Source: Candidatus Thorarchaeota archaeon
GTDB lineage: Archaea; Asgardarchaeota; Thorarchaeia; Thorarchaeales; Thorarchaeaceae
Length of the DNA: 13,795 nt
Direction: 5' to 3'
NCBI GenBank assembly: GCA_048884785.1
Contig: JBHLQM010000074.1
Span: 1-13,795 of the forward strand
Numbering within the stretch: the stretch's first letter is position 1; every line of letters starts with the position of its first letter. The notes beneath the pieces were generated by a model. It was not told the DNA's origin. It made no database searches and saw only the letters and a list, made by a program, of their open reading frames with translations. The position numbers and the translations under genes were made by a program. Shown in pieces: positions 4,394 through 13,612 of the stretch.

Positions 4394-7189
4394 ATGACAG
4401 TTGATCAACCGACTCAAACAGTAACTGAACCTGAAAAACAGATTCCCAGCGCACTCGTGATAGGAGGCGGGGTTGCAGGTATGCAGGCGGCCCTTGATAT
4501 TGCAAATCAGGGCTTTTTGGTACACCTTGTGGAAAAGACCTCAAGCATCGGAGGAAGAATGGCCGCCATTGACAAGACATTCCCAACGTTGGACTGTTCT
4601 GCCTGTATCCTTACTCCACGACTAAGTGAGGTCGCAAGGCATCCAAATATTGAGCTACTCACATATTCAGAAGTCAAGCGAGTGACAGGAAAAGCCGGAA
4701 ACTTCCATGTAGAGGTTCTCCGAAAACCACGATATATTCACGAGGACAAGTGTTCTGGATGCGGTGATTGTGTAGCCGTATGTCCGATTGAAACTGCAAA
4801 CGAGTTTGACGAGGGTCTCGGATTCAGAAAAGCAACGTATGTCCCGTTTCCGCAAGCCACTCCAAATGCATACACCATTGACAAACGAGATCATCCCGCT
4901 TGTAGAATAAATTGTCCCGCAGAAGTGAATTGTCAGGCATTTGTAACTCTTCTCAACCAAGAGAGGTATGCTGATGCACTTCGTATTGTTCGAGATGCAA
5001 TTCCGTTTCCGGGGATATTAGGAAGAGTTTGCGTTGGCTGGTGTGAAGGCCAGTGTCAGCGCGGGGAGTATGATGGAAGTGTAAGCATTCGTAACCTTCA
5101 CAGGTACCTTTCAGATTGGGAAAAGGAACAAGGGACCAAGAAACCTGTTGTCGCCAATATTGACAAGAAAGAGAGAGTAGCTGTAGTTGGTGCAGGTCCT
5201 GGAGGAATCTCATGTGCCTATCAGCTCGCCAGAATGGGATACCCTGTTACGGTATTTGAGAAACGTTCTGAACTTGGCGGTCTGTTAAAATGGGCAATTC
5301 CGGAATATAGACTGCCTCGGGATATTCTTCAGGAAGAGATTGAATGGGTCGCAGAACATGGCGTGGAGTTCAGATCAAATGTACATATAGAATCTCTAAA
5401 GCAGCTGAAAAAACAAGGTTTCAAAGCCATCTTTTTGGCAACAGGAGCCTCAAAGAGCAACAAGCTATCGATACCCGGGGAAGATTCAAAGGGTGTCTAT
5501 CATGCGATTGATTTTCTTGACAGAGTTGCTTCGGGCGAAAAGGTAACCGTGGGAGAAAGAGTTGTTGTGATTGGCGGTGGCGACGCTGCCATTGACTCAG
5601 CAAGAACGGCTCTTCGCCTAGGTGCGTCAGAAGTCACAGTAGTCTATAGACGTGGACAGACGGAGATTCCAGCAATACCTTCTGAGGTTGAAGATTCCCG
5701 ACAGGAAGGTATCCGTCTAATGCTGCTTACAGCACCTGTTGAGGTATTAACTCAGAAAGGTGCAGTTCAAGGTGTAAAATGCATACGCATGAAGCTCGGA
5801 GCTCCTGACCACTCTGGAAGATGCCGTCCTGTTCCCATTGCAGATTCCGAATTTACTGTAGTTGCTGATCAGATGATAATTGCAGTGGGTCAGACCGTGG
5901 AGCCAATTCCCATACATGAAGATCTGGATACAACCGAATGGGGAACCCTTATGGTTGACCAGATAACACTTGAAACAAGTGAGAAGGGTGTTTTCGCAGG
6001 AGGAGATTGTGTCTTGGGTCCTGCCACAGTTGTACAGGCAATTGGGCATGGTAAGAAGGCTGCAATCTCAATTGATCGTTATCTCCGAGGAGAGGATATG
6101 GAAGCTGGACGCGAGCCGGAACACTATCGCATTGCAAAACCGGCTGTCAATCAAGCCCACTTTAAATTCCAGCCTCGAACTGAAATGCGAAAGGCAAGTA
6201 TCCGGAGCAGAAAAGGTGATTTCTCTGAGGTAGAACTCGGATTCTATCACGACATGGCTGTAGCAGAGGCCGGTCGATGTTTGAACTGCACTGTGTGCTG
6301 TGAATGTCTTGAGTGTGTCAAGGCATGTGAGCGGAATGCTATTGATCATAGTATGCGCGAAGAGAAGTTGCACCTTAATGTTGGAGCTATTGTGGTGGCT
6401 TCTGGATACAAGCTCTATGATGTGTCCAAATACCCACGCCTAGGATTTGGTAAGTTCCAGAACGTAATCACAGCAATGGAATATGAGAGGTTGATTAATG
6501 CTGCTGGTCCCACGCAAGGTCACTTGATACGATTCAGTGATGGCAGGATGCCAAAGAGCATAGGATTTGTGCAATGCGTTGGTGCACGTGATACACAGAA
6601 AGGTGTTCCAAACTGTTCTCGTGTCTGCTGCATGTATGGTATAAAGAACGCAGTGATGGCAAAGGAACATGACCCTGATGCAGAGGTCACAGTTTACTAT
6701 GCTGACATCAGAGCATTCGGAAAAGGCTTCGAAGAGTTTTATGAAATGGCACGAACACGATTCGGAGTCAATTTTGTTCGAGGCCGTGTCGCTGAAGTCG
6801 ACGAAGATCCGATGAACGACAACCTGCTCGTTCAGGTCGAGAATACAGCAGATGGGACATTAATGAATGTTGAACATGATCTTCTTGTATTGAGCCCAGG
6901 ACTCATACCAAACGACGATACAGCTTTCATGGCAGATGAGCTAGGTATAACCCTGGATGACGAGGGATACATCGATACACGAGATGAGCTAGTTTCGCCT
7001 GTTGACACAAACAGGGATGGCATCTTTGTGTGTGGCTGCACAGACGGCCCCAAGGATATTCCGGATAGCGTAACCGCCGGAAGTGCAGCGGCAATGCATG
7101 CATCCATCATATTGGTGGAAAAGGAAAATGAACGAGGTGGCGAACTGAATACAGGAGCTGCCAAGGAACGGGAGGTTTCAGTGAAATAA
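4394..7189 (+). CDS. hdrA: HdrA-like flavoprotein (HdrL-type) with an inserted GltD/NfnB-like NAD(P)H oxidoreductase module; lacks the HdrA N-terminal domain and C-terminal ferredoxin
   Basis: ALVIGGGVAG FAD motif, KTFPTLDCSACILTP, CSGCGDCVAVCP; insert with PACRINCP, PFPGILGRVC..CEGQC, VAVVGAGPGG, VVVIGGGDAAIDSARTALRLGA..YRR, GVFAGGD; then CCECLECVKAC, QCVGARD..CSRVCCMYGIK and GPKDIPDSV. Confidence 0.93.
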   Translation: MTVDQPTQTVTEPEKQIPSALVIGGGVAGMQAALDIANQGFLVHLVEKTSSIGGRMAAIDKTFPTLDCSACILTPRLSEVARHPNIELLTYSEVKRVTGKAGNFHVEVLRKPRYIHEDKCSGCGDCVAVCPIETANEFDEGLGFRKATYVPFPQATPNAYTIDKRDHPACRINCPAEVNCQAFVTLLNQERYADALRIVRDAIPFPGILGRVCVGWCEGQCQRGEYDGSVSIRNLHRYLSDWEKEQGTKKPVVANIDKKERVAVVGAGPGGISCAYQLARMGYPVTVFEKRSELGGLLKWAIPEYRLPRDILQEEIEWVAEHGVEFRSNVHIESLKQLKKQGFKAIFLATGASKSNKLSIPGEDSKGVYHAIDFLDRVASGEKVTVGERVVVIGGGDAAIDSARTALRLGASEVTVVYRRGQTEIPAIPSEVEDSRQEGIRLMLLTAPVEVLTQKGAVQGVKCIRMKLGAPDHSGRCRPVPIADSEFTVVADQMIIAVGQTVEPIPIHEDLDTTEWGTLMVDQITLETSEKGVFAGGDCVLGPATVVQAIGHGKKAAISIDRYLRGEDMEAGREPEHYRIAKPAVNQAHFKFQPRTEMRKASIRSRKGDFSEVELGFYHDMAVAEAGRCLNCTVCCECLECVKACERNAIDHSMREEKLHLNVGAIVVASGYKLYDVSKYPRLGFGKFQNVITAMEYERLINAAGPTQGHLIRFSDGRMPKSIGFVQCVGARDTQKGVPNCSRVCCMYGIKNAVMAKEHDPDAEVTVYYADIRAFGKGFEEFYEMARTRFGVNFVRGRVAEVDEDPMNDNLLVQVENTADGTLMNVEHDLLVLSPGLIPNDDTAFMADELGITLDDEGYIDTRDELVSPVDTNRDGIFVCGCTDGPKDIPDSVTAGSAAAMHASIILVEKENERGGELNTGAAKEREVSVK

Positions 7190-7730: not shown

Positions 7731-8605
7731 TGGACCTAATTCTCTACAGAGGATGTACAACCCCTGTTCGACTACCTGCCTACGAGGCTGCAACAATTGC
7801 GGTTCTTGAGAAACTCGGTGTGCATATCTATGAGATGTCAGATGCCAATTGCTGCGGAGCCCAGTATGTTGAATCCATGGATAAGATGGCATTTGCTGCA
7901 ATGAGCGGCAGAATACTTGCTCTCGCTGAGAGAGAAGAGAAGGACATTCTCGCCCTTTGTGGTGCTTGCTCCGGCTCCCTCAAGACAACCAAGCATTTGC
8001 TCGATACTGATATCCGGGCAAGGGATGAGGTCAATTCTCTATTGGCAGAGGAGGGTCTAAAGTATACAGGGAAAGTGCGAGTAAAGCACTTGCTGCAGGT
8101 ACTCGCCGAAGATATCGGTTTTGACGCAATCGAGCGTGCAGTTGTAAACCCGTACAAAGATGTGAAACTTGCGGCGCATTATGGATGCCACGTAACCCGA
8201 CCCTATGAAATTGTACAGGTAGATGATCCTGAGAACCCGACAATCCTTGATCGCCTTGTTGAGGCAGCTGGTGCCACTGCTGTCGATTATCCAGGAAAGA
8301 CAAGATGCTGCGGCGGACCGATGCTCGCAATGGATGAGGAAGTAGCAGCTCGAATTGGACTAGACAAAATTGACAATATTCTGGACTCCGGGGCAAATGG
8401 TGTAGTCACAGCATGTGTCTTCTGCGACATCCAGCTGACTCAGGTACAGTTCGGATCACAAGCTGGGAAGAGAACGAAGATACCTATAATGCCTATACCC
8501 CAGTTTCTGGGCCCAGCACTCGGAATAGATGAAGACATTCTTGGTATTGAGCTGAATAAAATCGATCCTCATCAGGTGATAAGTTGCAGTGGGGTGAATC
8601 AATGA
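7730..8605 (+). CDS. hdrB: Heterodisulfide reductase subunit B (two CCG domains)
   Basis: YRGC..NCCG..CGAC and HYGCH..CCGG..CVFC motifs. GTG start overlaps the hdrC TAG; SD GGAGGTG at 7715-7721. Confidence 0.95.
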   Translation: MDLILYRGCTTPVRLPAYEAATIAVLEKLGVHIYEMSDANCCGAQYVESMDKMAFAAMSGRILALAEREEKDILALCGACSGSLKTTKHLLDTDIRARDEVNSLLAEEGLKYTGKVRVKHLLQVLAEDIGFDAIERAVVNPYKDVKLAAHYGCHVTRPYEIVQVDDPENPTILDRLVEAAGATAVDYPGKTRCCGGPMLAMDEEVAARIGLDKIDNILDSGANGVVTACVFCDIQLTQVQFGSQAGKRTKIPIMPIPQFLGPALGIDEDILGIELNKIDPHQVISCSGVNQ

Positions 8606-10383
8606 CAGAAGGTCAGGTGGAGTCCGTTTCTGCAGAACTCAACGCTACGCCACGGATTGGCGTATTTGTATGTCACTGTGGTCATAATATTGCAGGTGTG
8701 GTAGATGTAGAAAAAGTTGCAGACTCTGCTAAGAAACTACCGAATGTTGCATTCGCGACTCATGAAATGTTCACCTGTTCTGATGCAGGGCAGGAGCTAA
8801 TTCGTGAGAAGATAAAGGAGTGCAATCTCAATCGTGTGGTTGTAGCTAGCTGTTCGCCTCGTATGCATGAACCAACATTTCGTCGAGTTGTTGAAGAAGC
8901 AGGGTTAAACAGATATCTCTTTGAACAGGTGAATCTTAGAGAGCATGTTTCTTGGTGCCACTCAAGGGAGCCAAACGCAGCCACACAGAAAGCATCTGAT
9001 CTCATTCGGATGGCAGTCGCGCGAGCTGCAGAACTCGAAGCATTGCCGATAAAGCGAGTACAAATAACTCCTAGAACACTTATTGTGGGTGGCGGAATCG
9101 CAGGCATCAGAGCAGCATTGGATGTCGCAGATCGTGGATTTGAAGCAGTCATTGTTGAACGTGATTCGGAATTAGGTGGCAATGTTCGAAAATGGTCGCA
9201 TATGTTCCCTGGTGAAAAACCAGGAAAGGAAGTTCTGAAGCCCTTAATTGAGCGCGCTCAGAAACACAAGAATATCAAAATCCTTACTGGCGCGCATGTC
9301 GAGAACTTTGAGGGGTATGTTGGAAACTTCGAAGCCCATATTGCGGTTCAAGGGCTCAAAAATACAAAGAAGTTTCAGGTTGGCACCGTCATCGTTGCCA
9401 CAGGATTTGAACCATTTACACCCCAAGGCCACTATGCCTATGGTGAAAGCCCTGATATCCTAACGCTAGCCGAGCTTCAATCGCTTCCAGATGAAGAGCA
9501 ATACCTTAGACGAAGTGACAGCAAGCCTGTAAAGAAAGTTGCCTTCATAGGCTGCGTAGGTTCTCGTGAGCCAGGAGTGAAGGGGCATGAGCATTGTTCG
9601 CGATACTGCTGTTCTGCTCTTGCCAAGACGGCTGCAATCATGAAGAAACGGCTCGATGAAGCTATTATCCTGTATCAAGATATTCGCACCTATGGAAAAG
9701 ACCACGAGGAATTCCAACGAATCGCTCGTGATAGGCATGTTATCTACTCAAAATTCCCAACCGAGAATAAACCCAAAGTAATTGTAAAGAATAAGAAGAT
9801 CAAACTATACTGGCATGATGTTTTCTCAGATTCACCACTTGATTTTGAGCCAGACCTCCTCATTCTTGCGTCTGCAATGACACCGCCGGATGGCATAGAA
9901 GAGGTTTCGCATGCGTTTGGCCTGACTCGTAGTGGTGATGGATTCTTCAATCCGGAGCACATCAAATTGGCTCCCGTATCCACTCATACAGCAGGAATCA
10001 TGATAGCTGGAGCAGCGCAGGCTGCAAAGAATGCATCTGAGGCTGTGATTGATGCAAGTGGGGCGGCAGCGAAAGTTGTTGGATTAATGGCAAAGGGAGC
10101 TGTGGAGATCGAGTCAACAGTGTCCAGAGTACTTCCCGAGCTTTGTTCGTCATGTGCTACATGCATTACAGCCTGTCCATATCGAGCTATTGAGTGGGAC
10201 GAATCACGTGACCCGCACATCGCACAGGTCCAGGAAGCAAAGTGCCACGGTTGCGGAACCTGTGCTGCAGCATGTCCTAGTAGTGCTATCATCATGTTGC
10301 ATTCCACAGATAGTCAAATCATGGCGATGGTGGAGGCCTACCTCTGCCCACCGCCCGAAACCACAGGAGGTGGTGTAAAGTGA
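8602..10383 (+). CDS. hdrA: Second HdrA-like subunit with N-terminal Fe-S domain, FAD domain and C-terminal ferredoxin, but no inserted ferredoxin
   Basis: RIGVFVCHCGHNIAG, FTCS, VVASCSPRMHEPTF, NLREHVSWCH, LIVGGGIAG, GCVGSR..CSRYCC, CSSCATCITACP and CHGCGTCAAACP. ATG 8602 overlaps the hdrB TGA (ATGA) after SD GGGGTGA. Confidence 0.93.
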   Translation: MTEGQVESVSAELNATPRIGVFVCHCGHNIAGVVDVEKVADSAKKLPNVAFATHEMFTCSDAGQELIREKIKECNLNRVVVASCSPRMHEPTFRRVVEEAGLNRYLFEQVNLREHVSWCHSREPNAATQKASDLIRMAVARAAELEALPIKRVQITPRTLIVGGGIAGIRAALDVADRGFEAVIVERDSELGGNVRKWSHMFPGEKPGKEVLKPLIERAQKHKNIKILTGAHVENFEGYVGNFEAHIAVQGLKNTKKFQVGTVIVATGFEPFTPQGHYAYGESPDILTLAELQSLPDEEQYLRRSDSKPVKKVAFIGCVGSREPGVKGHEHCSRYCCSALAKTAAIMKKRLDEAIILYQDIRTYGKDHEEFQRIARDRHVIYSKFPTENKPKVIVKNKKIKLYWHDVFSDSPLDFEPDLLILASAMTPPDGIEEVSHAFGLTRSGDGFFNPEHIKLAPVSTHTAGIMIAGAAQAAKNASEAVIDASGAAAKVVGLMAKGAVEIESTVSRVLPELCSSCATCITACPYRAIEWDESRDPHIAQVQEAKCHGCGTCAAACPSSAIIMLHSTDSQIMAMVEAYLCPPPETTGGGVK

Positions 10384-10823
10384 CGACAACGTCAAATGAA
10401 GTATCAGTCGAATTCGAGTGGGAACCGAGAATAGTTGCCTACTGCTGCAACTGGTGTTCCTATGCCGGAGCTGACCTAGCTGGAACAAGCAGAATACAAT
10501 ATCCGCCTAATGCTAGAATTCTCCGTGTGAACTGCACAGGGAGAATTGATCCTGAGTTCATCTTGGCTGCCCTTGATATGGGCGCAGATGGAGTTCTGGT
10601 TTCTGGGTGCCATCCAGGGGACTGTCACTATACTAGCGGCAATCTCAAGGCACGAGCAAGATGGGCACTCATGGAGAAGGTGATAGAGCAATCAGGTGTC
10701 AATCCAAAGCGAGTGCGTCTGCAATGGGCAAGCGCCTCAGAGGCACAAATCTTCGCTGATGGGGTTCGAACACTTGTCGACCAAGTTCGTGAGCTTGGAC
10801 CAATTGAGAGGGAGTGGCGATGA
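10380..10823 (+). CDS. mvhD: F420-non-reducing hydrogenase [2Fe-2S] subunit D (all-cysteine form)
   Basis: IVAYCCNWCSYAGADLAGTSRIQYP, RVNCTGRIDP, GADGVLVSGCHPGDCHY, WASASEA. GTGA overlap with the hdrA2 stop. Confidence 0.96.
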   Translation: MTTTSNEVSVEFEWEPRIVAYCCNWCSYAGADLAGTSRIQYPPNARILRVNCTGRIDPEFILAALDMGADGVLVSGCHPGDCHYTSGNLKARARWALMEKVIEQSGVNPKRVRLQWASASEAQIFADGVRTLVDQVRELGPIEREWR

Positions 10824-11053
10824 GAAGATTCTCAGGTTTCTTTGAACAAAAACATAGTGAAGTCCGACATCAGCGCCAGAGGATTAAGGAAGCAGTGAGT
10901 GGCGGCGCAAATACGGTAGACAAGATTTCAGAGGCCACCAAAATGCCCAAGGAGCTTGTAGTATGGAATCTCATGGGCTTGCTAAAGTGGGGTCAGGTTG
11001 AAGTTTGTGGTGAAGTGAACCATGAACCTGTGTACGCTATCAAGGAGGCCTAA
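10820..11053 (+). CDS. Small winged-helix-like protein (77 aa), function unknown
   Basis: ATGA overlap with mvhD and a 2-nt gap to mvhG. The pattern IKEAVSGGANTVDKISEATKMPKELVVWNLMGLLKWGQVEV..PVYAI fits a helix-turn-helix plus beta-wing; fold assigned by eye. Confidence 0.8.
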   Translation: MRRFSGFFEQKHSEVRHQRQRIKEAVSGGANTVDKISEATKMPKELVVWNLMGLLKWGQVEVCGEVNHEPVYAIKEA

Positions 11054-11055
11054 TA

Positions 11056-11991
11056 ATGGGAGATCCTGTACCTGTTGCAATGGCTCAAGGTTCCTCATGC
11101 TGGGGATGTTTCCAAAGCCTTATTGATATCCACCTCGGACTCGCGGATGTTTTGCCGAAGTTGGATATTAAGTACTGGCAAGCTGTTGTAGACTTCAAAC
11201 TGCATCATCTTGAGGGTTATGAAGACAAGTCTATTGTTGTTGGATTCTTTGAGGGTATGGCAAGAACCGAGGAGGATATCCATCTTCTAAAGACCATGCG
11301 CAATAAGTGTCAGATTCTGATAGCCTATGGGTCTTGTTCCTGCTTCGGAGGGATTCCAACCTTGGCCAACCTCTCTGACATTGAGGAGTGCTACGATGTG
11401 AAATATCGTGAAAACAAGACATTCAGTGGCGGAAAGGTTCCATCTGAGAATATTCCAAAGATAGAAACAGTGGTCAGACCGAATTCCGACTTTGTCAACT
11501 TTGATATTTACCTACCCGGATGTCCGCCGACTCCAAAACTCATTGCGACGGCAGTGACATCTTTACTTGAAGGAAAAGAACTTGAACTTCCACCTCATAC
11601 AGTCTGTCACTACTGCAAGAGAGAGAAGAAGGAGACCCCGATTGACAACATCCTGCGTCCATTTCAGGGCATAGCTGACCCAGAACGATGCCTGCTAGAG
11701 CAAGGATACATTTGTGTGGGGTCAGCAACGTGGGGTTTGTGCGAAGGCCAGTGTGTCAATAAGGGTGCAACCTGCCGAGGTTGCTTTGGACCTCCACCTC
11801 CTATAATGGCTGACCATGGGGCAGCTTCTATCTCAATGCTGGGGACATATGCCCCTATTGAACCAGAAAAGCTTGTTGAGCAAGTCAAAGATCCTCTTGG
11901 TACTTTCTATCGTTTTGACTATGGAACAAGTCACCTCAATAGAATACGTATCAGGAGGGAAGATATCGTGAGACCCAGGGAGGTACACTAA
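11056..11991 (+). CDS. mvhG: Group 3c [NiFe(Se)]-hydrogenase small subunit (MvhG/VhuG)
   Basis: SSCWGC, EG..R, AYGSCSCFGGIP, YLPGCPP, VCHYCKR, CLLEQGYICVG..C...C..CRGCFG; SD GGAGG upstream. Confidence 0.94.
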   Translation: MGDPVPVAMAQGSSCWGCFQSLIDIHLGLADVLPKLDIKYWQAVVDFKLHHLEGYEDKSIVVGFFEGMARTEEDIHLLKTMRNKCQILIAYGSCSCFGGIPTLANLSDIEECYDVKYRENKTFSGGKVPSENIPKIETVVRPNSDFVNFDIYLPGCPPTPKLIATAVTSLLEGKELELPPHTVCHYCKREKKETPIDNILRPFQGIADPERCLLEQGYICVGSATWGLCEGQCVNKGATCRGCFGPPPPIMADHGAASISMLGTYAPIEPEKLVEQVKDPLGTFYRFDYGTSHLNRIRIRREDIVRPREVH

Positions 11992-13307
11992 TGACGAATG
12001 ATAAGACAATTCGAATTGACCCTGTAACTCGACTTGAAGGCCATGGAGCTCTAACCATTAAACTCAGTAAGGACAACAAAGTCAAAGATATCCAATATAA
12101 TGTGGGCTCTACAAGATTCTTTGAGAAGTTCCTAACTGGGCGACCAATGGAGGAAGCTCCCCGTATTGCCCCCAGGATTTGTGGAATCTGTCCTATTCCC
12201 CACCATCTGGCATCAATCAAAGCAGTTGAAGCGGCTTGGGATGTAAAACCACCACCAGCCGCAATTAAGCTGCGACGGTTGATGATTGAAGCCAAACAAC
12301 TCTCTTCACATGCAATTCATTTCTATGCCCTTGCGGCTCCTGACTTTGTATTTGGCCCGTTTGCCAATCCAGCTGTCAGAAATGTTGCGGCTGTTTTGAA
12401 GCACTTGCCAGATGTGACAGTTCAAGCCATCAAGATCATGGAGTTTGGACAAGAGCTCATTCGTGATATTGGTGCAAAATCTGTGCATCCTGTCACCGGA
12501 ATTCCGGGCGGAATGCTGAATACACTAAAGGAAGAGGAGCGTGACAAATGGCTAAAGCAAGTCCCTGAGATGCTTGAAAATGTCAACAAAACCGTAGAGC
12601 TTGCTAAGACTGTGGTCAACGCATATCTAGATGTCATAACGAAAGTTGCTGTTACACCTACATACTATATTGGTCTTACTAACAATGGCACCTTAGATAT
12701 TTATGATGGAAATGTGCGTGTGATGGACCCGGACGGCAAGATTGTTGCTGACTTTGAGCCAAAAGACTACACTAAGTACTACGGAGAACACATTCCAAAG
12801 CATGCATATGCAACCCACATTTACTTCAAACCAGCAGGATATCCTGAAGGAATTTGGAGAGCAAACACACTTGCTCGATGCAATGTTGCAGATAAGATGG
12901 CTACACCATTAGCAGATGCAGCTTTGAAGGAAATGCGGGACCTTGTGGGTCGGCCTTCACATCACACGTTTGTCTACCACTACGCACGTATTGTAGAGCT
13001 CGTGCAAGCCGCAGAGTGGATTAAGACACTACTGGAAGACCCTGACATTGTCAGTACTGATGTAAAGCTGTCAGATGTTGAACCAAAGGCTGGAGATGGT
13101 GTAGGTATTGTAGAGGCTCCACGAGGCACTTTGCTACACAATTATACAAGTGATGAGAAAGGTATGCTTGTGCATGCAAACCTCATCGTTGCTACAAATA
13201 ACAACATCGCTGGGATAGAGAAGTCTCTCATGACGGCAGCGAAACAGATCTTCGAGGATAAGGCTCTCGATAGTCTGAAACTACCGGAACCACTGGTTAA
13301 GACCTAG
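11991..13307 (+). CDS. vhuA: Group 3c hydrogenase large subunit, N-terminal chain (VhuA-type, lacks the C-terminal L2 motif)
   Basis: IDPVTRLEGH, RFFEKFLTGRP, L1 motif PRICGICPIPH, VHPV..PGG, EAPRGTLLHNY, NLIVATNNN. It ends at TAG without DPCxxCxxH. Confidence 0.93.
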   Translation: MTNDKTIRIDPVTRLEGHGALTIKLSKDNKVKDIQYNVGSTRFFEKFLTGRPMEEAPRIAPRICGICPIPHHLASIKAVEAAWDVKPPPAAIKLRRLMIEAKQLSSHAIHFYALAAPDFVFGPFANPAVRNVAAVLKHLPDVTVQAIKIMEFGQELIRDIGAKSVHPVTGIPGGMLNTLKEEERDKWLKQVPEMLENVNKTVELAKTVVNAYLDVITKVAVTPTYYIGLTNNGTLDIYDGNVRVMDPDGKIVADFEPKDYTKYYGEHIPKHAYATHIYFKPAGYPEGIWRANTLARCNVADKMATPLADAALKEMRDLVGRPSHHTFVYHYARIVELVQAAEWIKTLLEDPDIVSTDVKLSDVEPKAGDGVGIVEAPRGTLLHNYTSDEKGMLVHANLIVATNNNIAGIEKSLMTAAKQIFEDKALDSLKLPEPLVKT

Positions 13308-13318
13308 GAGATGAAGTG

Positions 13319-13483
13319 ATGACCGAAGAAATACCCGAAGGCGTACTCAACCTCATTGAGATGGTCGTACGCTGTTATGACTGCTGACTATCATGTGCGG
13401 CTCACATGGTTGTCGTTCGTGAGGATGACGATGGTGAACTGCACGAGATAGCCAGGAAGGATCTAGTGCTGGGCGGCGCATGA
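13319..13483 (+). CDS. vhuU: Selenocysteine-containing hydrogenase peptide VhuU (54 aa; Sec TGA at 13385-13387)
   Basis: MTEEIPEGVLNLIEMVVRCYDC-U-LSCAAHMVVVREDDDGELHEIARKDLVLGGA*. It has its own SD (AGGAG, 13306-13310). The TGA sits at the first Cys position of the L2 motif (RxxDPCxxCxxH) that vhuA lacks, homology continues past the TGA, and a SECIS follows. Confidence 0.95.
13385..13415 (+). promoter_or_regulatory. In-CDS hairpin starting on the Sec codon (SRE-like / bacterial-SECIS-like)
   Basis: UGACUAUCAUGUG-[CGGCU]-CACAUGGUUGUCG: 12 of 13 positions pair (two G-U pairs, one U-U mismatch). Confidence 0.65.
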
Positions 13484-13538
13484 AGGTCCAACCGAAACTC
13501 GGGTTGGACTGGACGACCCCGCAAGGGTCGCCCGCACT
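13465..13538 (+). promoter_or_regulatory. Eukaryote-type SECIS element
   Basis: AUGA (13480-83), N11, AA (13495-96), N15, GA (13512-13). Helix II GGUCCAACC/GGUUGGACU; helix I AGUGC-U-GGGC/GCCCGCACU; extra hairpin GACCC-CGCAA-GGGUC. Confidence 0.85.
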
Positions 13539-13546
13539 CTCCTTCA

Positions 13547-13558
13547 TTCTTTCTTTTT
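13547..13558 (+). terminator. Pyrimidine/oligo-U tract, likely archaeal terminator of the operon
   Basis: TTCTTTCTTTTT immediately after the SECIS and before a convergent gene. Confidence 0.55.
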
Positions 13559-13612
13559 GAATTCACTTGTCGAAAGTGTAAAACGTATTCTTGAGTGGTT
13601 CATGAAACACCT

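Follow-up and report, generated by a model that had tools for sequence, protein, structure and literature searches.

A probable eukaryote-like SECIS element with the vhuU stop codon in its core in a Thorarchaeota archaeon

In the Thorarchaeota genome analyzed here, the 3' end of the hydrogenase gene vhuU very probably forms a kink-turn SECIS element that resembles those of eukaryotes and is known as lokiSECIS, or Asgard eSECIS-like type I. The element would direct selenocysteine (Sec) to the UGA codon at positions 13385 to 13387, and it would be unwound, with termination as the outcome, once the ribosomal A site reaches the stop UGA of the same gene. We make this assignment because the element covaries, accompanies Sec-type but not Cys-type vhuU genes, and has the same core as the one that closes selD, and because the full Sec machinery is present in the genome. 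The location of the stop codon within the SECIS core had been proposed from the DNA letters alone, in a sequence-only reading that could not tell whether such an overlap had been reported. The layout is correct but largely known: it was published for Asgard archaea in 2016, explicitly for Lokiarchaeota VhuU.1 by Mariotti et al. 2016 (PMC4989117), and Huang et al. 2024 (PMC11227280) mention it again.

The locus is therefore one more Thorarchaeota example of a published principle. To that principle we add a codon-level map of the kink-turn, a reciprocal -1 pair in selD, constraint at synonymous sites, a stop-codon bias in vhuA, and a side hairpin as a near-universal third arm, together with the findings that the overlap is near-universal for vhuU (70/73) and that Thorarchaeota selD has the same layout. 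Asgard SECIS elements are a proposed link between archaeal and eukaryotic selenocysteine decoding, and the stop-in-core layout is a natural experiment on the way in which a single mRNA separates a UGA for Sec from a UGA for termination.

A Sec-type vhuU gene at the end of a hydrogenase gene string

The window, the whole stretch of DNA that was analyzed (13,795 nucleotides), is one entire contig (C74) of a 3.6-Mb genome bin that is 91% complete. Pfam matches give the gene order AFOR (minus strand), PEPCK, an HdrA-like fusion (4394 to 7189), hdrC, hdrB, a shorter hdrA (8584 to 10383), mvhD/flpD (10380 to 10823), a small open reading frame (ORF), vhuG (11056 to 11991), vhuA (11991 to 13307; a truncated large hydrogenase subunit matching NiFeSe_Hases), and vhuU. 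The vhuU gene starts after a gap of 11 nt on the plus strand (13319 to 13483; 54 codons, stop included), and its translation with TGA read as U gives ...RCYDCULSCAAH..., the small Sec-containing C-terminal part of a split [NiFeSe] hydrogenase large subunit. The Sec codon (UGA, 13385 to 13387, plus strand) occupies the Ni-ligand Cys/Sec position of the motif D[PC]UxxCxxH. Its context, UGC UGA CUA, is shared by 60 of 75 distinct vhuU genes, and the sequence UGA-CU is found in all of them; the Leu codon CUA that follows is favored over its synonyms. The stop UGA lies in frame at 13481 to 13483. As the sequence-only reading had counted, 93 nt separate the two UGA codons, and the Sec UGA is 96 nt upstream of the core described below.

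No in-frame TGA occurs in either the HdrA-like gene (4394 to 7189) or hdrA (8584 to 10383), and the HdrA and MvhD proteins of the cluster are accordingly Cys forms. The HdrA-like protein has 931 residues and contains an inserted GltD/NfnB-like module (Fer4_20, Pyr_redox_2). The small ORF between mvhD and vhuG (10814 to 11053, 79 codons) overlaps the mvhD stop codon with its start; it has no Pfam match and is conserved, with tblastn recovering 45 distinct orthologous loci. Downstream of vhuU, a T-rich tract (13546 to 13558, plus strand) read from the sequence is likely to be the transcription termination signal of the operon, and in most orthologues the element is likewise followed by T-rich tracts. 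The region is covered in part by two metatranscriptome contigs of separate studies, one spanning 13318 to 13537 (9 differences) and the other 13415 to 13558 (3 differences), although such contigs cannot prove transcription, ends, or strand.

Structure of the element around the stop codon

The 5' half of the core (13478 to 13484, plus strand) consists of G13478, the bulged bases C13479, A13480, and U13481, and then G13482, A13483, and A13484, with the stop codon formed by U13481 to A13483. It is followed by a 9-bp helix (helix II, 13485 to 13493 with 13502 to 13510), found by minimum free energy (MFE) folding, RNAalifold, and covariation, and by an apical loop of 8 nt (GAAACUCG, 13494 to 13501). 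In the 3' half of the core (13511 to 13514, plus strand), G13511 stands opposite A13484, G13512 and A13513 stand opposite A13483 and G13482, respectively, and C13514 pairs with G13478. The 5' strand of the lower stem, helix I or P1 (13466 to 13475; GUG CUG GGC G, with U13470 bulged), lies in codons V-L-G-G and pairs with 13529 to 13537 according to MFE folding, RNAalifold, and pair counts. Both the stop TGA as the UGA of an AUGA/GA core and the origin of the 5' strand of helix I in the last codons had been noted in the sequence-only reading, and both held. A side hairpin (P3, 13514 to 13530; CGACCC / CGCAA / GGGUCG) is part of the RNAalifold consensus. A tentative outer stem, P0, would join 13456 to 13461 (GAAGGA, codons R-K-D) to 13540 to 13545 (UCCUUC) in the MFE fold, and its 3' strand is conserved in orthologues. 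The MFE of 13455 to 13550 is -47.7 kcal/mol (z = -4.3 against shuffled sequences).

At the sequence level, the core has the arrangement of a kink-turn, with a G13478-C13514 pair, the bulge C-A-U, and the tandem pairs G13482.A13513 and A13483.G13512; A13484.G13511 is the next non-standard pair above these sheared pairs. As judged from its bases, this arrangement fits a standard kink-turn in which the last codon provides G(-1b), N(L1), and A(L2) and the stop codon provides U(L3), G, and A. Because the last codon supplies -1b, L1, and L2, its middle base, and with it the last residue of the protein (G, A, E, or V), is free, while bases 1 and 3 are fixed. The -1 pair is G-C in vhuU and is reversed to C-G in selD (CCA UGA ... 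GAGGA), which reads as a compensatory change between the two gene families.

We compared the element with published Asgard SECIS elements. It has the Asgard core, AUGA (13480 to 13483) before the stem and G13512-A13513-C13514 after it, and its 9-bp upper stem lies inside the 7 to 15 bp of the Huang 2024 model. The lokiSECIS of VhuU.1 (Mariotti et al. 2016, PMC4989117) comes from the same gene family and likewise has AUGA before a stem of ~9 bp, an A-rich start and a final G in the loop, and a C behind the GA or AA that follows the stem; it too overlaps the coding sequence in part and uses AUGA as the stop. The two elements come from different classes (Lokiarchaeota and Thorarchaeota), and they differ in the loop (11 nt with AAAAA in lokiSECIS versus 8 nt, GAAACUCG, here) and in the 3' core (AA in Loki VhuU versus GA). 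The loop here contains AAA and the final G; loops measure 10 to 12 nt in other Thorarchaeota genera and 11 nt in Lokiarchaeota, and the length of 8 nt here fits the looser 2024 Huang model but not the strict 2016 Mariotti length. The second comparison is with the Asgard eSECIS-like type I element of Thorarchaeia frhA and vhuU, for which Huang et al. 2024 (PMC11227280) give Thorarchaeia-specific loop and lower-stem signatures: the AUGA_GA core, the 7- to 15-bp upper stem, and a loop of the G[U/G]AAA kind are alike, and the lower-stem signature [U/C]GG_C[C/U][A/G] fits U13470-G-G with C13532-C-G. That model has an internal loop between the 3' GA and the lower stem, where we find a conserved hairpin.

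Eukaryotic type I SECIS elements share with the vhuU element the kink-turn core AUGA...GA, the unpaired A's of the loop, a 3' location from which they act at a distance, and the need to lie some minimum distance away from the UGA that they recode. In contrast to them, the vhuU element has a shorter helix II, overlaps the coding sequence and the stop codon, carries a third helix, and belongs to a genome without an SBP2 homologue. The SECIS elements of Methanococcales and Methanopyrus resemble it in their 3' location within an archaeal hydrogenase operon, and the VhuD type has AUGA with GAC or AAC; however, the vhuU element has tandem G.A pairs in its core and lacks both the GAA_A bulge and the run of three G-C pairs. 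A search of 13455 to 13550 for the GAA_A asymmetric bulge flanked by G-C pairs gave none.

The curated Rfam SECIS families gave no match at E values up to 10 in the whole window or in 13380 to 13600. SECIS-finding tools miss Asgard elements too, according to PMC4989117 and PMC11227280. The nearest Rfam model was flpD RNA (RF01737) on 13476 to 13516, with a score of 15 bits, far below the gathering score of 40. AUGA and a GAA bulge are present in the consensus of this model, one control genome contains a match that passes the cut-off, and M. jannaschii is the only archaeon with a match; RF01737 may be the VhuD-type SECIS of Methanococcales.

The element is conserved and covaries in Sec-type vhuU genes

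A VhuA search over 60 relatives returned 29 orthologous loci, 26 of which include vhuU. These 26 Thorarchaeota orthologues were unselected for pairing, and every one keeps the arrangement, with a TGA stop preceded by a last codon of the form G-N-A (GGA in 20, GCA in 3, GAA in 2, and GTA in 1). RNAalifold applied to a plain MAFFT alignment recovered three helices: the lower stem, helix II, and the side hairpin. Pair counts were made after the sequences had been realigned with a covariance model. In the unselected orthologues, helix II showed two-sided changes at 8 of its 9 pairs; all 9 were compensated in a wider alignment, which had itself been selected for pairing. The lower stem P1 changed on both sides at 5 of 10 pairs, with 84% of cells paired, and its consensus pairs in RNAalifold are 13471 to 13475 with 13529 to 13533. 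None of 500 shuffles reached the observed covariation score, and slid controls reduced the paired share from 87% to between 35 and 50%. The orthologues are kin, so that these counts overstate independence, and since the alignment was fitted to the model and the sequences are related, we take the counts as supportive and not as a formal test. Covariation across vhuU 3' ends, where the sequence-only reading had advised looking for it, was seen, with the core conserved and 8 of 9 helix II pairs compensated. Double changes in P0 came from two extra covariance model hits only, which leaves its support weak; the complementary CUCCUU is conserved in the 3' untranslated region (UTR) of most orthologues.

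Among 58 aligned cores, the 5' G, A, U, G, and A and the A and C of the 3' GAC were invariant, position L1 was free, and the G of GAC was nearly invariant, being replaced in the AAC of Loki-like sequences. The apical loop conserved AAA near its start and its final G. These patterns bear on the idea that the hairpin serves transcript termination or stability at the 3' end, with no relation to selenocysteine, and that its likeness to AUGA/GA is a coincidence. The element does close the final gene of the cluster, with the T-rich tract immediately behind it, its fold is stable, and no Rfam SECIS model matches it. Termination in archaea depends on an oligo-T signal and does not need a hairpin. A structural role of this kind would hardly keep AUGA, the loop AAA, and GAC invariant while the helix sequence changes freely, and it leaves unexplained why three Cys-type homologues lack the element and why an unrelated selenoprotein gene, selD, is closed by the same core. 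We regard a termination hairpin as barely conceivable and retain the SECIS assignment.

A second alternative is that conservation reflects protein constraint on the C-terminal tail (...LVxGGG-stop), in which case the pairing with coding sequence would be incidental and only the hairpin in the 3' UTR would matter. The tail peptide (...RKELVTGGG) is indeed conserved at the protein level. However, the last residue varies (G, A, E, or V) while bases 1 and 3 of its codon stay G and A, and the codons in paired positions are nearly fixed beyond the requirements of the amino acid. In P1, Val is GTG in 24 of 25 cases and Gly is GGC in 21 of 22, and in the P0 region Lys is AAG in 25 of 25 and Glu is GAG in 18 of 21, whereas Leu and Thr codons outside the pairing are variable and all four synonyms occur at two Val codons farther upstream. 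The double changes at 5 of 10 P1 pairs, and a UGA stop in 70 of 73 genes where 35% would be expected, also argue against protein constraint, which we consider very improbable as the main cause. Conservation of an RNA element that extends into the coding sequence remains the preferred reading.

The background for the stop-codon comparison comes from this genome, in which TGA ends 35% of long ORFs and A+TGA ends 12%; given ATGA, we calculate a chance of ~0.7% for a helix followed by the [GA]A pattern. The wider set contained one genome per species plus added paralogues and outgroups, in bins labeled Thor-, Loki-like, Hel-, Jord/Frey-, Atabey-, and Hermod-, and yielded 73 distinct Sec-type vhuU genes. 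In 70 of these the core UGA is the stop. Of the 70, 57 match a strict pattern without gaps (AUGA, N, at least 8 of 9 pairs, N, [GA]A) whose first base immediately precedes the stop; visual inspection showed the same arrangement in the remainder, in which the helix has a bulge or AUGA is replaced by GUGA, UUGA, or CUGA. In the other three, an earlier TAA or TAG ends the gene and the element lies 5, 22, or 45 nt beyond it, with a spacing of 84 to 106 nt from Sec codon to core. In almost all vhuU genes this spacing is 84 or 96 nt. Three Cys-type homologues (Bathyarchaeia-labeled and one other) end in TAG and are without the element.

One of the three early-ending genes, in the Loki-like locus L042 (G044:C49), has its tail shortened by a TAA only 39 nt from Sec to stop; its AUGA element persists 45 nt downstream and keeps the 84-nt Sec-to-core spacing of the relative L043 (G054:C65). 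Overlap between stop and core is therefore not obligatory.

The third alternative that we weighed is that the second UGA is also partly decoded as Sec, yielding a longer VhuU isoform, such that the overlap would tune the ratio of products without excluding recoding. Read-through would add 36 codons before the next stop, and there is no backup stop nearby. Among orthologues, however, the apical loop is 8, 10, 11, or 12 nt long, which shifts the reading frame and therefore marks the region as noncoding, and conservation downstream of the stop is of the RNA type and not of the codon type. The VhuU tail after the His residue is reportedly removed on maturation in Methanococcus voltae, as Sorgenfrei et al. 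are said to have found in 1993, and an extension would for that reason have no obvious use. A second recoding event is in our judgment hardly credible, and we continue to treat the core UGA as a stop.

A side hairpin forms a third arm

Of 59 distinct vhuU contexts, 58 have a hairpin of 4 to 7 bp that begins 0 to 2 nt past the C of the 3' GAC or AAC; the loop reads CGCAA in 36 of them and mostly YGCNN in the rest. Because 0 or 1 base separates this side hairpin from the lower stem, the element takes the form of a three-way junction with the kink-turn at its center. Two-sided change was seen at 1 of 4 hairpin pairs, A13516-U13528, which is AU in 17 sequences, GC in 6, GU in 3, and CG in 1. The MFE fold of the single sequence extends helix I into 13527 to 13533 and competes with the side hairpin for four bases (13527 to 13530). 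We rejected a two-stem model with this extended helix I, since the covariation at 13516-13528 and the RNAalifold consensus favor the side hairpin; the two folds may alternate.

The k-junction, known from the Lilley laboratory, is a kink-turn elaborated into a three-way junction. The vhuU element resembles it in having a three-nucleotide bulge, tandem G.A pairs, and a third helix that leaves the non-bulged strand right after the G.A pairs. The C helix is only 1 to 2 bp here (G13478-C13514 and C13477-G13515), unlike that of the k-junction, and the resemblance is one of sequence and pairing only. The main text on lokiSECIS (PMC4989117) describes neither a side hairpin nor a lower stem, and a side hairpin or three-way junction, including a tetraloop or GNRA in that sense, is absent from the main texts of both PMC4989117 and PMC11227280. 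We tentatively suggest, as a possibility that we think the less likely outcome, that the Asgard SECIS is a kink-turn within a k-junction-like three-way junction, that its third arm (the 4- to 7-bp hairpin with an NGNRA-type loop, CGCAA) is a required component of the signal, hitherto undescribed, in both vhuU and selD, that the reading frame is locked to the kink-turn, and that the stop-in-core layout is selected and not merely tolerated. The conserved third helix should be included in structural and biochemical work on Asgard SECIS elements.

selD has the same layout, and the Sec machinery is present

The selD gene of the same genome (G000:C3:126054-127150; locus L153/L160) has one in-frame TGA, the Sec codon near the N terminus, and its last residues, ...EFP, are succeeded by a UGA that forms part of CCAUGA; downstream lie a helix, GAGGA, and a hairpin whose loop is of the CGCAA type. 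Because the stop of selD thus falls in an AUGA core, the organism has another selenoprotein gene, unrelated to vhuU, that terminates at the core UGA. All 25 other Thorarchaeota selD loci examined share the layout, with [A/G]UGA (CUGA in one) and a covarying helix.

The remaining Sec machinery is clustered on one contig (C35, 12547 to 16040), where tRNA-Sec (12547 to 12637), SepSecS (13376 to 14500), and SelB (15198 to 16040; above the cut-off) all lie on the minus strand, and the Sec-type SelD is encoded on C3. An AIRS-family gene beside this cluster on C35 was considered as SelD and rejected; the true SelD is the one on C3. The L7Ae family is represented in the genome by only two short open frames, of 125 and 115 amino acids, and no SBP2-like protein was found in the genome. 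A core covariance model (R2), built from vhuU sequences only, detected no SECIS-like element besides that of vhuU in the 91%-complete genome. A loose pattern scan of the genome gave 28 matches, of which only vhuU and selD are real; matches at C2:97491 and C21:14923 look good but have no matching reading frame.

How one mRNA may distinguish its UGA codons

The proposed mechanism depends on the position of the ribosome. The 5' half of the SECIS would be built from the last ~9 codons of vhuU. A ribosome covers roughly 12 to 15 nt downstream of its A site. When the Sec codon occupies the A site, the closest base of the element that is paired (13456) would be ~70 nt away, so that the SECIS would stay intact and could deliver SelB-Sec-tRNA. 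With the A site on 13481 to 13483, P0, P1, the core, and the 5' strand of helix II would be single-stranded, and the unwound element would leave no SECIS to recruit SelB-Sec-tRNA, allowing release factor to terminate translation. Each ribosome that finishes vhuU would then transiently destroy the signal for a ribosome 96 nt behind. Kink-turn folding, protein binding, and the melting rule are all inferred.

The melting explanation, which the sequence-only reading had also put forward, is the same inference as that of Mariotti et al. 2016 (PMC4989117), who note that AUGA doubles as the stop codon in Loki VhuU.1, propose a minimal-distance rule, and hold that a SECIS is kept by its structure from acting on UGAs so close by. 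They draw the comparison with the minimum spacing of 51 to 111 nt for eukaryotic SECIS elements. Huang et al. 2024 (PMC11227280) began their search 30 nt upstream of the stop, to allow for the frequent overlap of UGA stops with AUGA. A Loki SECIS did not work in Methanococcus maripaludis (PMC11881835), and the portion of the Asgard SECIS literature covered here contained no experimental evidence for any Asgard SECIS.

The base after the codon differs between the two UGA codons of vhuU (UGA-C at the Sec codon versus UGA-A at the stop), but A follows the Sec codon of selD, which rules out the +4 base as a general discriminator and makes the vhuU Sec codon context gene specific. A 12-bp hairpin that begins on the Sec codon (13386 to 13414) was also rejected as a conserved recoding signal, since 10 or 11 of its 12 pairs are kept within this genus but only 5 to 9 in the other genera of Thorarchaeota; the need to encode AAHMVV probably gave rise to it incidentally.

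Other stop codons of the gene string bear on a possible range over which the SECIS would act. The vhuA stop (13305 to 13307), 176 nt before the core, is TAG here, and TGA ends vhuA in only 7 of 74 distinct orthologues versus the 35% genome background. Farther upstream, hdrB, hdrA (hdrA2), and mvhD end in TGA (8603 to 8605, 10381 to 10383, and 10821 to 10823), 2.7 to 4.9 kb from the only SECIS of the gene string, and TGA closes mvhD in 43 of 44 distinct orthologues, where it usually forms an ATGA shared with the start codon of the next gene. This contrast suggests that UGA is selected against inside the range of the SECIS, though not at great distances upstream of it. The distant UGA stops of hdrB, hdrA, and mvhD mean either that distance alone is not the whole discrimination rule or that these genes are on separate transcripts; possible explanations for their tolerance are separate transcripts, an upper limit of range in a polycistronic mRNA, or tolerated read-through. 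Judged from the positions of the codons, the 84- or 96-nt spacing from Sec codon to core and the depletion of TGA at the vhuA stop would fit a range rule.

One relative carries an additional trace of the element. About 1.1 kb downstream of its vhuU, at L009:4154-4255, lies a decayed vhuU 3' end together with a SECIS copy in which AUAA stands for AUGA, and a covariance model match in L011 (2 to 95) is similar to this second L009 match.
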